The notes: a model not told the origin generated them from the sequence alone. A stretch of 51,553 nt of DNA from Gemmatimonadota bacterium (GCA_040389605.1 JAZJZU010000019.1:1-51553); one strand, 5' to 3'. Positions 2,899 through 23,395 are shown, counted from the stretch's first letter. Translations and numbers: made by a program.

Positions 2899-3000
2899 AG
2901 AATCCTCCAGACAGGGATCGGGGTTGGGCCAGACAGCTGAACGAAATTACCAGCGGGAGACAGGTACGAAACGATGTCGCAAAACGTTTCAACCGGTCCG

Positions 3001-3414
3001 TTACCCCCGGATGGTGATCCCGTTTCCAGCGGCCCCGAGCGCGAGCAGCGGCACCCCGGCACACCCGGCGATCCACATCCAGGTCGGATGCGGGGCGCTG
3101 AGGAGGTTCATCACGACGACACCTGTGAACAGCAGCGCGAATCCCGACACTGCACCTCCCCGCCCACCCAGCCGGGCCGCGATGAGGCCACCCGCGTAGG
3201 CGGCGAGCCACCAGCCGCACAGGACCAGGATCAACGAAGCGAAGGGAATTTCTCCCGCCTCGAGCGCCTGCTTGAGTTCCTCGGCATCGAGCGGGTTCAC
3301 GCCTGCGGGGAGCGGCAACATCCGGGCGGCGAGGGTCTCGATCAGGAACACGATCGACCAGGCGACCGCGAGGGAAGCCAGGATAGCGTAGATGCGTCGG
3401 CCCAGACCGGACAT
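3001..3414 (-). CDS. small integral membrane protein, function unknown
   Basis: 137 aa with 4 predicted hydrophobic helices. ATG start with GGAGG 7 nt upstream. Confidence 0.6.
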   Translation of the reverse strand: MSGLGRRIYAILASLAVAWSIVFLIETLAARMLPLPAGVNPLDAEELKQALEAGEIPFASLILVLCGWWLAAYAGGLIAARLGGRGGAVSGFALLFTGVVVMNLLSAPHPTWMWIAGCAGVPLLALGAAGNGITIRG

Positions 3415-6599: not shown

Positions 6600-7141
6600 C
6601 AGCTCTTGACCACCGCGGCGTACCGCTGTCGGAGTTTTGCCACCTTCGGCGCGATCATCGCCGCGCAGTAGGCACGGCTGGGATTGCGCTGAAAATACTG
6701 CTGGTGGTACTCCTCCGCTGGCCAGAACCGGTCGAGCGGGGTGATCTCGGTCACGATCGGCCCGTCGAACACCCCCTCGGCCGTGAGTCCTGCCACCACT
6801 GCCTCGGCCGTGGCCTGCTGTTCCGGCGACGAGGTAAAGACCACCGACCGGTACTGCGTTCCGCTGTCGGGGCCCTGGCGGTTGAGCGTCGTCGGGTCGT
6901 GAAAGGCGAAGAACAGCTCGACCAGTTCCCGGTAGCTCCGGACGGCCGAATCGAACGTGACCTGAATTACCTCGGCGTGGCCGGTCGCTCCCGAACAGAC
7001 CTGCTCGTAGGTCGGCGCCGGTCGTGCACCACCCGAGTAGCCCGACACAACACGCTCAACACCCTGCAGCCGCTCGAAGACCGCCTCCAGGCACCAGAAG
7101 CACCCGCCGCCGAAGACCGCGGTTTCCAGTTTGCGCTCCAC
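6599..7141 (-). CDS. msrA: peptide-methionine (S)-S-oxide reductase MsrA
   Basis: AVFGGGCFWCLEAVF, GHAEVIQVTFD and HDPTTLNRQGPDSGTQYRS are MsrA signatures. The track ORF extends to 7243. I place the start at GTG 7141, which is preceded by AGGAAGAGG; the extension would overlap the upstream gene. The stop overlaps the lepB start (TGATG). Confidence 0.9.
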   Translation of the reverse strand: MERKLETAVFGGGCFWCLEAVFERLQGVERVVSGYSGGARPAPTYEQVCSGATGHAEVIQVTFDSAVRSYRELVELFFAFHDPTTLNRQGPDSGTQYRSVVFTSSPEQQATAEAVVAGLTAEGVFDGPIVTEITPLDRFWPAEEYHQQYFQRNPSRAYCAAMIAPKVAKLRQRYAAVVKS

Positions 7142-20182: not shown

Positions 20183-20218
20183 CCGGGTGACCTCTCAGTG
20201 GAGCGAGGGGTCACCCGG
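20183..20218 (+). terminator. hairpin downstream of the DPP-IV gene (possible terminator, no T-tract)
   Basis: CCGGGTGACC (20183-20192) and GGTCACCCGG (20209-20218) form a perfect 10-bp inverted repeat. It starts 43 nt after the stop codon. Confidence 0.4.
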
Positions 20219-20257: not shown

Positions 20258-20737
20258 ATGCGCCCCCAGACGTTGTTGATGTCCTGCGCAGTTCTCGCTT
20301 TGGCAGCCTGCTCCAATCCGGTCTCCTCGGACGCTACCGCCCGCTGGATCGCCGTATTCGATCACGTGCCAACCGCGGCCGACCAACAGGCGCTTACACA
20401 AGCCGGCGCCGCCCATCAGATCGTTTACCCCATCGCGCACTCGGTAGGCTTCGATGGCGCCGGGAGTGGCCAAAAGTATTTCGAGACGCCGGGGGTCACG
20501 GTCGCGTTCGCCATCTCCAGCGTCGATGCGCTCAGGCCGGCCGAGTTCCGGACGAGTGCGCCTCCAACGCTAGCGGATCAACAGGCCATCCTCGCCGCGG
20601 GCGGCACCATCGACAAAATTGACCCGGTCAAGTGGAGCATCACTGGGCGGCTCGCCTTCAGCAAACTCTCCGCGCTGTCGAATACTCCGAGTATCACGCT
20701 CGTCGTAGTCGGCTGTGATTGCAGCAGGGTTCTCTGA
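20258..20737 (+). CDS. lipoprotein paralogue A: two tandem I9/propeptide-like units, C-terminal CDCS motif
   Basis: ATG 20258 follows AGGAGGAATT. Signal peptide with lipobox: MRPQTLLMSCAVLALAAC. It aligns end-to-end with the product of 22545..23021. Confidence 0.7.
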   Translation: MRPQTLLMSCAVLALAACSNPVSSDATARWIAVFDHVPTAADQQALTQAGAAHQIVYPIAHSVGFDGAGSGQKYFETPGVTVAFAISSVDALRPAEFRTSAPPTLADQQAILAAGGTIDKIDPVKWSITGRLAFSKLSALSNTPSITLVVVGCDCSRVL

Positions 20738-20780
20738 ACCGATCTGCCTCATTCTTGAGCGCGATGGGAGGCAGAAGCAA

Positions 20781-20812
20781 GCTGGCCCCGAGTCGCAAGA
20801 CTCGGGGCCAGC
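20781..20812. terminator. bidirectional hairpin terminator between convergent genes
   Basis: GCTGGCCCCGAGTC-GCAA-GACTCGGGGCCAGC is a perfect 14-bp stem with a tetraloop. It lies in the 98-nt gap between the stops at 20737 (+) and 20836 (-). Confidence 0.65.
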
Positions 20813-20835
20813 CTCTACGGCTCAGGTACTATTGA

Positions 20836-22458
20836 TCAGGGACAAATGGCATCCAAGTGCGCACCACCGCCGTCCGATCGGAGCGACGCGCGCAAATCAT
20901 CACCACCCGGGCAAACGGGATATTGCCTGGAGTCCGAAATACTCGTCCTGTTACGCGGGCTGTAGCCCGACTTTTCCCGAATTGTCGTAACAACCGTGAT
21001 CGTATATTCACCGCTAGGAACAGGCAAGTTATAGGTCGAGTCTGTTCCATAGCCAGTGTCGATCGAAGAATGGGCCCCGTCAGTGTAGCTAACCTCCCAT
21101 CGATACTCGAGGGTCTGTAGCCCCCATTGACGTTGCGGGCTTAGTAGACAGCTGCTGGCGTGCAGTGGAGGAGTGTAGCAAGCAGTTACATCCGTAATCT
21201 GGGGACCAGGAACGACCGCAGCCAAGGCATCGATAAAGCCATAGCCATAATATCCGTCGAGGCCGCTTGCACCCCGATCCCGTGCCGAAGATGTGAGTCG
21301 GGTATACACATTTGATCCCGTCCATCCGGCGCTCACTAGAAGCGCGACTGCGCCTGTGACGTGAGGCGCTGCGGCCGAGCTTCCATCGAGCGTCTGAGTC
21401 GAATTGCCTAGTGCTGAAGTCAGGACCACAGTGGGCGCAGAAAGGTCTAGTCCAGTGCCATGCTGATTCGAACTAACATAGCTACCATTCTCCGTGTTTC
21501 CACCGACGCCAATCACACCGGTTACTTGTGCATAGCCGGAGACTGGATTGCTAGAATTACAGCCAGAATCGTTACCGTTCCCGGTTGCCGCGACGACGAT
21601 AATTCCCGCGGTGACCGCGTCCTCCACCGCATCGAGAACCGCACCAGTGAGAGCGCTCCCACAGTTGCCGTAGCTCAAATTAATCACATCCATTCCGTTG
21701 CTAATTGCCCAGTTGATGCCATTCGCCGAGCGCGTGTCGGAGCAATCGCCGGCAGAATCGCAGACTTGCACAGAGTAGAGGGAAGCCGACGGCGCCATTC
21801 CGATCACCCCAGATCCGTTCGCCGTAGCGAGTGCAATACCCGCAACACCGGTCCCGTGCCCGACTTGATCGTTGCAGGCCGCCCCAGACTGCAAGTGCAC
21901 ATAGTCGTGGCCCCCCGCCAATCGATCCTCAAGGTCGTCGTGTGTGCACTCGACTCCGGTATCGAGCACACCCACCTTCACGCCGCTCCCCGAATAGCCA
22001 ATCCCTTGCACATAGTCGGCATCTGTGGAGTCGACCCCCCAAGGCTTCGTATCCGTCCTTCGCGCCGTTACGAAATTTGTGGCTCGATGAAGCTTACCGA
22101 AGATATGAGAATTATCCTCTCCTAGTACCACTTGCTCCACCCAGGGAAGTGCTCGCAACCGCCTTACCGTAGCGTCGACACGGGCTTCTTGGACATCCAT
22201 TGTGAGCCAGCGATGTTTCGGCCAGTCAGTGACGCTCCGTACTCCCACCCCGTTCGAGGAAGCAGTGCGCGCGAAGGGTGCTGAGTTCTTGTATTTGATG
22301 CTTAGCGACCGAAGCGGGCCTGTGACCGAGGGGTCGACGATAGCGGCGGAAGCAGGAAGCGCTTCTGTCTCTGCAGTTGGAGAAGACGAATCGGTCAGGG
22401 GCGAACAGGCGGCTGCGAAGCTGCCGACCACGAGGGCGACGTAGGTGCGATAGTTCAT
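20836..22458 (-). CDS. S8 (subtilisin-like) serine peptidase lipoprotein with an N-terminal pro-region and a C-terminal beta-rich Cys-containing domain
   Basis: Catalytic motifs are VGVLDTGVECTHDDL (Asp), VGHGTGVAGIA (His), ATGNGN (oxyanion Asn) and GSSAAAPHVTGAVALL (Ser). The signal peptide with lipobox is MNYRTYVALVVGSFAAAC. The start is ATG 22458; an alternative GTG lies at 22470, as in the ORF track. Confidence 0.9.
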   Translation of the reverse strand: MNYRTYVALVVGSFAAACSPLTDSSSPTAETEALPASAAIVDPSVTGPLRSLSIKYKNSAPFARTASSNGVGVRSVTDWPKHRWLTMDVQEARVDATVRRLRALPWVEQVVLGEDNSHIFGKLHRATNFVTARRTDTKPWGVDSTDADYVQGIGYSGSGVKVGVLDTGVECTHDDLEDRLAGGHDYVHLQSGAACNDQVGHGTGVAGIALATANGSGVIGMAPSASLYSVQVCDSAGDCSDTRSANGINWAISNGMDVINLSYGNCGSALTGAVLDAVEDAVTAGIIVVAATGNGNDSGCNSSNPVSGYAQVTGVIGVGGNTENGSYVSSNQHGTGLDLSAPTVVLTSALGNSTQTLDGSSAAAPHVTGAVALLVSAGWTGSNVYTRLTSSARDRGASGLDGYYGYGFIDALAAVVPGPQITDVTACYTPPLHASSCLLSPQRQWGLQTLEYRWEVSYTDGAHSSIDTGYGTDSTYNLPVPSGEYTITVVTTIREKSGYSPRNRTSISDSRQYPVCPGGDDLRASLRSDGGGAHLDAICP

Positions 22459-22544
22459 AAGAAGGCTCACAGGTCAGGGGGACTGGGCATTCCAATTGAA
22501 TCGGACGAATTGGGCGTGAACGAAACGGTCGCCTCCCTCCGAGG

Positions 22545-23021
22545 CTACATGGGGTAACTGCAATCGCAAGCGATCACTACGAGCGTGAAGTTGGGATTTG
22601 ATGAAAGCAGGTTGATTCCACTGAGGGGGATTCTCACCGTAATTCGCCGATCCTCCTGGTTGACTTTCGTTACTACACCGCCAGCTGAGACCACAGCCGC
22701 ACTGTCGGTTCCTGCGGGCTCGCTTTCAGTGTGGACATCCATCTCCCGTGGTTCTGTCGGATTTCGTACCAGGAATACGTACTTGACACCAGGAATTCGA
22801 CTGAAGGGGACTCCGTCAGGGGCCGCCCGAAAGCCGATCGACCGTGCGATGGGGAATGCCTGAATGCTCGAGCCGCCGGTGGCACGAAGTGCGTTCTCGT
22901 CAGCTTCGTTTGGCGCCCGATCATAGCCGGCGATCCAGTATGTCGACGTATCTGCTGAGGTAGGTGTGCCGCAAGCGGCGAGTCCAACAAACAGCGAGGC
23001 AAATGTGGCGATGCGGAGCAT
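22545..23021 (-). CDS. lipoprotein paralogue B: two tandem I9/propeptide-like units, C-terminal CDCS motif
   Basis: ATG 23021 with a GAGG SD. Signal peptide with lipobox: MLRIATFASLFVGLAAC. It is a paralogue of 20258..20737 (WIAxxD, PIAxSxGF, PGV, AGG, NPxxTLVVxxCDCS). Confidence 0.7.
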   Translation of the reverse strand: MLRIATFASLFVGLAACGTPTSADTSTYWIAGYDRAPNEADENALRATGGSSIQAFPIARSIGFRAAPDGVPFSRIPGVKYVFLVRNPTEPREMDVHTESEPAGTDSAAVVSAGGVVTKVNQEDRRITVRIPLSGINLLSSNPNFTLVVIACDCSYPM

Positions 23022-23395
23022 GGAGGCCTCGGGGGAAGGTCCATTATTGAAGCGGTTCCAAAAAGATTCGCATTGGGCGCAGGTAGAAGCACCAACACTT
23101 TGACAGTAATTCTACTTCGGAAGGAAATCAAGGATGCAGCGTGCCATGCGCCACAAATGCTGCCATGTCCACACCTGTCCGCTGTCAGCCAAGTCTATTG
23201 AGTGGAAACAGTTGCCATCCCTCCGCAGTATGCGATTGAGTGGTGAGCGAGGCGCATTGTTCCCATTTGAAATTATGTAGGCTCTCGAAATCATGCGAAG
23301 GCCCATGTTCGATTCCGGCCCATAAAGCGCTCAAGTCGCAGGATCCGGGGCCTCGTGTTGCCCCTACTGCCAGAACCGAACCCTGAAGCGTCCCG

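Follow-up and report, generated by a model that had tools for sequence, protein, structure and literature searches.

How can a protease that is made as a lipoprotein, with its lipid anchor on a propeptide that it is expected to cut off, be kept under control and attached to the cell once it has become active? This question is raised by a locus at positions 20258-23021 of a 51,553-nucleotide stretch of DNA from a Gemmatimonadota bacterium (GCA_040389605.1 JAZJZU010000019.1:1-51553), the whole of which we refer to as the window. Three adjoining open reading frames (ORFs) there encode a small protein of 159 residues that we call A, an S8 subtilase of 544 residues, and a second small protein of 158 residues, B. 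An initial annotation had reported three consecutive lipoprotein genes at this place, and the ORFs were confirmed, each with its lipobox cysteine (LALAAC in A, SFAAAC in the S8 protein and VGLAAC in B). Our comparisons indicate that A and B belong to a family of lipoproteins built from two tandem units, and that unit 2 is homologous to the N-terminal propeptides of the S8 subfamily encoded beside them.

A and B are paralogues: they align end to end with 37% identity over 144 residues (E 5e-35, BLASTP), as had been annotated, except that A reads NTPSITLVV in place of the motif NP[SN][IF]TLVV given for the pair. When 1.84 billion representative proteins were searched with a profile of A and B (HMMER, E<=1e-3), a family of 15 proteins including A and B was obtained, and A matches the family hidden Markov model (HMM) with an E of 1.5e-44. 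Twelve of the 15 are 157-165 residues long; the other three (141, 180 and 220 residues) look like start-codon or truncation artefacts. The lipobox cysteine is nearly invariant across the family, one member of which (P0014, at locus L002) comes from a Gemmatimonadota metagenome-assembled genome (MAG). Pfam, NCBIfam and PADLOC have no model that matches A or B, a word-indexed homology search from B by itself gave B as its sole match, and the same kind of search with the 15-sequence alignment found four proteins, dominated by signal-peptide words; the family is a very rare one that no Pfam or NCBIfam model represents. Might A and B be pseudogene remnants of an S8 N-terminus? We rejected this possibility given their intact ORFs, lipoboxes, Shine-Dalgarno sequences, confident predicted fold and conservation.

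What, then, are these proteins related to? The HMM of the mature family, run against 4,101 ORFs from 91 loci and the window, recovered every family member, and its only matches outside the family were the N-terminal pro-regions of adjacent S8 proteins, at L003 (E 9e-6) and L007 (E 7e-5). In profile-to-profile alignment the family matched four S8 pro-regions through unit 2 with an hhalign probability of 95.4 (E 1.9e-8, score 50.7), against scores of 10.8+-2.3 with a maximum of 21.4 for 100 column-shuffled controls and of 12.4 for the reversed alignment. Individual pairs tell the same story: at L007 the small protein P0004 is 44% identical to the pro-region of its cognate S8 protein over 66 residues (E 2e-10, BLASTP), at L003 P0011 is 30% identical to that of its own over 71 residues (E 2e-4, BLASTP), and at L003, L007 and L009 alike the cognate pair of small protein and pro-region outscores every non-cognate pair. 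The two units of the small proteins are also homologous to each other (hhalign probability 96.3, score 47.2; column-shuffled controls 9.6+-2.2, maximum 20.8). Duplication of the propeptide of this S8 subfamily is, in our view, the best explanation for the origin of the family.

The link from the S8 pro-regions onwards to the canonical I9 propeptide is weaker but consistent. When 8 pro-regions were joined with 11 unit-2 segments in a single profile, its top match in the PDB was the Tk-subtilisin propeptide chain (E 0.097), with another subtilase pro-domain among its four matches, and a phmmer alignment of the window's S8 protein with unprocessed pro-subtilisin E reaches into the propeptide and places EDN-SHIF on EEDHIAHEY. 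PDB sequences searched with a whole-family profile gave no match, and the Pfam model PF22148 Fervidolysin_NPro-like gave a weak match in one family member (E 0.066).

Where do the small proteins end in relation to the propeptide? In the near-gapless alignment of the pro-regions with unit 2 their C-termini lie 0-1 residue from the P1-equivalent position, a coincidence whose exactness rests on the pro-subtilisin E alignment and on the spacing to a conserved PWG motif, the truncation points of the pro-regions having been partly chosen by us. The final Tyr of EEDHIAHEY in pro-subtilisin E is, as is well established for subtilisin maturation, the P1 residue of autoprocessing. At L003, L007 and L009 the P1-equivalent position is four residues before the conserved PWG/TWG motif, and subtilisin BPN' has the same four-residue spacing. 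The tails of the small proteins and the cognate pro-regions, with the predicted cut marked by a slash, read as follows:

Window, B: tail ...CDCSYPM; S8 pro-region ...EDNSHIF / GKLH...
Window, A: tail ...CDCSRVL; S8 pro-region ...EDNSHIF / GKLH...
L003, P0011: tail ...PLRPE; S8 pro-region ...DNRPE / EELVPWG
L007, P0004: tail ...EPLRPQL; S8 pro-region ...EPLRPM / ADLVTWG
L009, P0008: tail ...DDNVPQP; S8 pro-region ...DDNVVQ / ADILPWG

At each locus the tail resembles the cognate propeptide, and in the window the terminal Met of B and Leu of A are hydrophobic, as is the predicted P1 Phe. A and B end at the P1-equivalent residue and therefore look like a propeptide that has already been cleaved, a form that inhibits in product-like fashion, its C-terminus remaining in the S1-S4 subsites, and that the small proteins, if the cleavage site is correctly predicted, would mimic.

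The tandem alpha/beta architecture that had been proposed for the small proteins is supported by structure prediction. An AlphaFold2 model based on the 15-sequence alignment has a predicted local distance difference test score (pLDDT) of 91.8 and a predicted template modelling score (pTM) of 0.82, and consists of two consecutive beta-alpha-beta-beta-alpha-beta units; an earlier model from an alignment of A and B only had a pLDDT of 69.6. In Foldseek searches it was the lower-confidence model only that placed one unit on the subtilisin BPN' prosegment (1spb_P; TMt 0.73, root mean square deviation (rmsd) 1.7 A, probability 1.0), and pro-subtilisin E (3whi_B) was matched with a probability of 1.0 by the first model and 0.99 by the final one. 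The model agrees with two copies of the b-a-b-b-a-b alpha/beta sandwich of the subtilisin prosegment, a generic fold that alone does not single out propeptides. Over the whole length the top matches in the PDB were tandem ACT-ACT and RRM-RRM proteins, with a TM of about 0.3 and an rmsd >11 A.

The middle gene encodes, as first annotated, an S8 peptidase: Pfam Peptidase_S8 matches residues 161-411 (E 4e-43), Asp170, His205, Asn298 and Ser365 are conserved with an orthologue, and among solved structures subtilisin E, Carlsberg and BPN' come closest (E about 1e-44). The protein has a pro-region of about 100 residues, and its orthologues, at 35-46% identity, have the same N- and C-terminal regions. 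Its lipobox precedes the propeptide, which places the predicted lipid on the propeptide N-terminus. The C-terminal domain (about 125 residues) has no Pfam match; it is conserved in the closest orthologues, with four cysteines invariant between the window and L009, and the protein ends in ...CP in the window (...AICP), in L009 and in P0017. Between the predicted P1 residue, Phe124, and the conserved PWG motif the window's S8 protein carries an 18-residue insertion, GKLHRATNFVTARRTDTK, that is absent from the orthologues at L003, L007 and L009; P0017, P0018 and P0020 also have longer linkers here. Possible roles of the insertion are those of a second processing site or of a tether. The features of the locus, in window coordinates, are:

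20258-20737, + strand: gene of paralogue A, a 159-residue lipoprotein, convergent with the S8 gene
20258 (start) to 20308 (end), + strand: signal peptide of A, followed by lipobox Cys18 at 20309-20311
20339-20515, + strand: propeptide-like unit 1 of A
20534-20710, + strand: propeptide-like unit 2 of A
20711-20734, + strand: C-terminal tail of A, GCDCSRVL
20781-20812, no strand: hairpin between A and S8, where their 3' ends converge
20836-22470, - strand: gene of the S8 subtilase lipoprotein, 544 residues from GTG or 540 from the ATG at 22458
22408-22458, - strand: signal peptide of the S8 protein, followed by lipobox Cys22 at 22405-22407
22099-22407, - strand: own propeptide of the S8 protein, residues 22-124, with Phe124 as predicted P1
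22045-22098, - strand: 18-residue insertion or linker of the S8 protein
21238-21990, - strand: S8 catalytic domain (Pfam S8), residues 161-411
20839-21213, - strand: Cys-containing C-terminal domain of the S8 protein, residues 420-544
22545-23021, - strand: gene of paralogue B, a 158-residue lipoprotein, upstream of S8 on the same strand
22974-23021, - strand: signal peptide of B, followed by lipobox Cys17 at 22971-22973
22767-22943, - strand: propeptide-like unit 1 of B
22572-22748, - strand: propeptide-like unit 2 of B
22548-22571, - strand: C-terminal tail of B, ACDCSYPM
23022-23395, - strand: non-coding region of 374 bp (54% GC) upstream of B, where the low-GC segment has its upper edge

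Both A and B hold a C-D-C motif in their tails, and CDCS is private to these two proteins; acidic or amide residues (EDN, DDN) stand at this position in the S8 propeptide and in other members of the family. A disulfide, metal binding and a redox switch are possibilities for its role.

The 86 nt between the stop codon of B and the ATG of S8, on the same strand, were confirmed, and Shine-Dalgarno sequences precede the ATG codons of A (AGGAGG, at a distance of 4 nt) and B (GAGG, at 5 nt). The non-coding region upstream of B is the presumed promoter region of a putative B-S8 transcription unit; one weak sigma-70-like site was found in it (23299-23272, - strand), no better than chance expectation. 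The hairpin at which A and S8 converge is formed by a 14-bp perfect GC-rich inverted repeat (20781-20794 and 20799-20812, with a 4-nt loop) and has a folding energy of -35.3 kcal/mol (z -5.6, far better than shuffled sequence). Of its description as a shared bidirectional terminator the perfect repeat stands, but it has no U-tract and was not called by an intrinsic-terminator scan; a possible role is that of a bidirectional transcript-end or stabiliser element. A second GC-rich hairpin (20183-20218; 14-nt arms, 93% complementary, 8-nt loop) lies between the end of an S9/DPP-IV gene and A's start, and the transcript of the S9 gene may end there.

The low-GC island in which the whole unit was said to sit takes in S8 and B with the intergenic stretch upstream of the latter, but does not include A: GC content at third codon positions (GC3) is 0.587 in S8 and 0.591 in B, against 0.756 in A, which is near the host composition, and 0.74-0.85 in neighbouring genes. 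The module is divided in composition, A being host-like and B, its paralogue, foreign-looking together with S8; possible origins of this split are staggered acquisition, a cassette replacement beside a resident paralogue, or different expression constraints. No direct repeats (att-like) flanking the module were found in the window. Its gene neighbourhood is unremarkable, being made up of metabolic and peptidase genes (DPP-IV/S9, M24, a cytochrome c/TPR protein, FMN reductase, DinB and acyl-CoA dehydrogenase), with no secretion-system or toxin genes around the module. We rejected readings of the locus as an RNA element (no Rfam or tRNA matches) and as a defence system (generic S8 matches only from PADLOC).

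Does the pairing of small lipoprotein and subtilase occur elsewhere? The related loci are short metagenomic contigs. A small lipoprotein gene followed on the same strand, 40-170 nt away, by an S8 orthologue is found in the window (B) and at L003, L007 and L009; the L003 S8 gene is frameshifted in the assembly, the L007 contig ends inside S8, and the L009 S8 lipoprotein (521 residues) is 40% identical to the window's over the pro-region, catalytic and C-terminal domains. Both families are exceedingly rare. Across the linked loci the small proteins share only 23-26% identity and the S8 proteins 40-46%, and four independent co-occurrences in one order at such divergence cannot be chance, small as the sample is. 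A fifth S8 orthologue, P0019, is preceded at a distance of 45 nt by an unannotated gene for 161 aa. The bracketing of the subtilase by two paralogues, which the initial annotation had emphasized, holds for this window but not beyond it: a convergent second copy (A) occurs here only, and elsewhere there is a single upstream copy. None of 80 generic S8 loci from GTDB genomes, found by a scan with an S8 alignment and <=40% identical in the catalytic domain, has a family member, and both families seem to be absent from GTDB species representatives. A search of a metagenome collection with a 4-member alignment added one real locus, L096 (L097 is the same sequence); L098 was rejected as a false positive, its ORF being UxuA-like.

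Several of these loci merit separate description. At L096 (123-3689) the family member lies on the same strand as an M28 metallopeptidase gene and 1.1 kb downstream of it, the two being separated by an unannotated ORF; this adjacency may be coincidence or a switch of partner. At L002 (8630-9783), P0014 is followed by a 2.1-kb stretch without a called gene, in which two overlapping ORFs without a Pfam match seem to be one frameshifted gene for a Cys-rich lipoprotein. S8 orthologues that are without the propeptide-like family have instead a downstream, same-strand lipoprotein of another family, of about 135 residues, the members of which are:

L092, 4984-5436: one member
L093, 1850-2254 and 2331-2735: two tandem paralogues, 67% identical
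L094, 4054-4461: one member

The pairwise E of this second family ranges from 1e-4 to 1e-13, three of its four members end in GGGCII or GGGCIV and that of L094 in GLPCQN, and it lacks both a Pfam match and a homologue within the window. The S8 subfamily may recruit partners of unrelated fold, as potempins (described below) do. At L092 a stretch of 34 nt that exactly repeats the 3' part of tRNA-Lys (2666-2700) is upstream of the S8 orthologue, with the other copy at 6640-6674, in an intact tRNA-Lys gene (6630-6703) that is part of a four-tRNA cluster about 4 kb downstream of the partial copy. The repeats bracket the S8 gene, its 150-aa lipoprotein and a 102-aa ORF that by eye resembles the end of an integrase (no Pfam match), and the segment looks like a small integrated island. 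At L009 a fragment of a Mutator-family (IS256-like) transposase (2949-3374, - strand; Pfam E 2.5e-27) directly follows S8 in convergent orientation, a hint that the S8 cassette lies in mobile DNA.

How might the parts of the locus work together? A and B would be secreted and lipid-anchored, each presenting two tandem copies of the subtilase propeptide fold. The S8 protein is predicted to process itself after Phe124, and because its lipid is on the propeptide N-terminus, this autoprocessing should separate the catalytic domain from the membrane; the catalytic domain would thereby lose its lipid anchor and eventually also be released by its own propeptide. B, probably co-transcribed from upstream, and probably A as well, would then bind the mature catalytic domain in trans, with unit 2 packed on the protease surface and the free tail (...SYPM or ...SRVL) lying product-like in the S4-S1 subsites. 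Bound in this way the protease would be kept inhibited or latent and at the membrane, protecting the cell's own envelope. For every part of this scheme there is a precedent among the systems compared below. That the small proteins are lipid-anchored, trans-acting propeptide mimics, serving as tethered inhibitors or latency keepers of the S8 protease, is the interpretation we favor, with a probability of roughly 0.55; the binding, inhibition, tethering, co-transcription, cleavage site and cellular location that it supposes are all inferred.

A number of observations weigh against this interpretation. A and B themselves score at noise level against their own S8 pro-region in pairwise comparison, with no significant similarity, and the family profile gives an E of 0.039 against the window's pro-region alone; A and B have diverged beyond pairwise recognition of it. 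Unit 1 is not significantly similar to the propeptide by itself (score 22; shuffled maximum 21). Of the propeptide/I9 resemblance claimed initially, the homology to S8 propeptides (hhalign, BLASTP) was upheld, but the Pfam model for the I9 fold, PF05922 Inhibitor_I9, has no match at E<=1 in A or B and none at E<=10 in the 15 family members or in 8 S8 pro-regions. Foldseek with the whole model does not separate the family fold from tandem RRM or ACT domains. The linkage to S8 genes that had been anticipated across genomes is present at L003, L007 and L009 but is not obligatory: family members without a nearby S8 gene occur at L002 (the Gemmatimonadota MAG), L008 and L096, making up three of the seven resolvable family loci (two further loci are unresolved at contig ends), and S8 orthologues without the small-protein family occur at L092, L093 and L094. 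Informative loci are few. Lastly, the S8 protein keeps its own propeptide and may have no need of a second.

The initial annotation knew of no described system of this kind. This claim was overstated, as functional analogues are known (potempins, SUB1-ProM and other stand-alone I9 proteins, dentilisin PrcB/PrcA and Aeromonas ORF2), and the logic of a separately encoded partner controlling a neighbouring subtilase is already well known; our literature search found no earlier bacterial, lipidated or tandem propeptide-like stand-alone protein. Propeptide-like I9 inhibitors that stand alone include Pleurotus POIA1, yeast PBI2 and Arabidopsis SPI-1, as well as Toxoplasma MIC5 and Plasmodium SUB1-ProM, the last of which is encoded beside subtilase genes and inhibits its cognate subtilase (PMC6993865). 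A and B are like these in being separate small gene products that copy the propeptide fold, here with direct homology of the family to the cognate propeptide, and unlike the I9 inhibitors named in that paper (all eukaryotic, single-unit and soluble) in being bacterial, lipid-anchored and tandem and in having no PF05922 match. The potempins of Tannerella forsythia are lipoproteins encoded directly upstream of, and co-transcribed with, secreted KLIKK peptidases, of which they are specific inhibitors that protect the outer membrane; PotC is described as a subtilase inhibitor, and PotB1 and PotB2 are paralogous copies (PMC9890683). B is likewise a lipoprotein encoded directly upstream of a peptidase in the same orientation, an order repeated at L003, L007 and L009, whereas A is convergent with the peptidase. 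Potempins are beta-barrels (oligonucleotide/oligosaccharide-binding (OB) fold or eight-stranded) that insert loops into the active-site cleft and are unrelated to propeptides, in contrast to the modelled tandem alpha/beta sandwich of A and B; their genes are <=5 bp from the peptidase gene or overlap it, against the 86 nt between B and S8, and the KLIKK peptidases carry a T9SS (type IX secretion system) C-terminal domain that the window's S8 protein is without. 

Two further systems are close in other respects. Dentilisin of Treponema denticola contains PrtP, an acylated S8 protease that loses its lipidated N-terminal fragment when activated, and the lipoproteins PrcB and PrcA from the same operon interact with mature PrtP and anchor it (PMC8167434). 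PrcB and PrcA are reported to occur in oral treponemes only, no likeness to propeptides is described for them, and both are encoded upstream in one operon, unlike A and B, whose likeness to them is by description only; an NCBIfam scan of A and B gave nothing relevant to PrcB/PrcA, whose sequences were not compared directly. The window's S8 protein matches NF033595 denti_PrtP with 33.9 bits (cut-off 300) over residues 263-419 only and is not a PrtP equivalog. In Aeromonas sobria the kexin-like S8 protease ASP lacks a propeptide, and the separately encoded ORF2 places its C-terminal residues in the active site, acting as a temporary inhibitor and folding helper (PMC5638518 and references cited there). 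The window's S8 protein, by contrast, has a propeptide; orf2 is downstream on the same strand, whereas B is upstream and A downstream but convergent; and ORF2, compared with A and B by description only, is not described as a lipoprotein.

Do these precedents offer better explanations? The small proteins might, like PrcB, be tethers or stabilisers that bind mature S8 outside its active site, keep the active enzyme on the envelope and are needed for its stability rather than for its inhibition. The position of the S8 lipobox before the propeptide, by which processing should release the catalytic domain, suits such a role, as do the gene upstream on the same strand, like prcB, and what is known of the dentilisin complex, which is without the acylated N-terminal PrtP fragment, has PrcB and PrcA1 as its anchors, and yields no detectable PrtP protein when PrcB is missing (PMC8167434). 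Propeptide homology and C-termini at the P1-equivalent position point instead to occupancy of the active site, and S8 orthologues exist without the small-protein family, so that we consider a tether possible yet unlikely. A trans-acting foldase, an "external intramolecular chaperone" that the S8 protein needs for productive folding, in the manner of ORF2 with ASP, and that is later degraded, would also account for propeptide homologues, given that propeptides are folding catalysts (PMC6993865) and that ORF2 is a separately encoded chaperone and temporary inhibitor with its C-terminus in the active site (PMC5638518). But S8 retains a full propeptide where ASP has none, three S8 orthologues manage without the family, and the confident, compact two-unit fold (pTM 0.82) would suggest a stable rather than a sacrificial protein; this explanation seems to us improbable.

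About as small a chance can be given to the idea that A and B are defensive, immunity-like inhibitors against the subtilases of other cells, kin or competitors, with the locus a mobile protease/antidote cassette and the orphan family members stand-alone protection. It would fit the foreign composition of S8 and B beside a host-like A, the mobility genes beside S8 cassettes (the L009 transposase and the ~4-kb L092 island bounded by the tRNA-Lys 3'-end repeat), the family members without an S8 neighbour, and the precedent of PotA, which also inhibits a foreign protease (PMC9890683). It is countered by the absence of secretion-system or toxin context around the module, by PADLOC matches that are only generic for S8, by the best matches being those of cognate pairs, which fits self-regulation, and by the very few loci. 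That the small proteins have no functional link to the protease, being ferredoxin-like (ACT/RRM-like) envelope lipoproteins with some other ligand role that adjoin it through the shared ancestry of a duplicated segment, we regard as highly improbable: the tandem ACT and RRM domains that head the whole-model Foldseek matches, and the three of seven resolvable loci without S8, speak for it, but those structural matches are poor (TM about 0.3, rmsd >11 A), the sequence homology is specific to propeptides of this S8 subfamily with no other ORF among 4,101 scoring, order and strand are kept across pairs only about 25% and 40% identical, and the C-termini track the cognate cleavage region. A broader and more speculative proposal, which we think rather unlikely as a whole, is that S8 and a small lipoprotein form a horizontally mobile cassette of a protease plus its cognate antidote or holder, the partner being repeatedly recruited from different folds (here a duplicated propeptide, at sister loci the unrelated ~135-aa lipoprotein), with the lipid-anchored tandem propeptide taking over the self-cut catalytic domain and the host-like A serving as resident protection against the acquired enzyme.

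If the interpretation of A and B as lipid-anchored propeptide mimics is true, a bacterial subtilase propeptide has been duplicated, anchored to lipid and set free as an independent gene that controls its parent enzyme in trans. This would connect the eukaryotic stand-alone I9 inhibitors with the bacterial lipoprotein inhibitors encoded beside their proteases, and would give a simple answer to how a lipoprotein protease with its anchor on the propeptide might remain under control or attached once it is active. The family profile would in addition annotate a set of "hypothetical" lipoproteins, and such proteins would be candidates for specific, stable inhibitors of subtilases.

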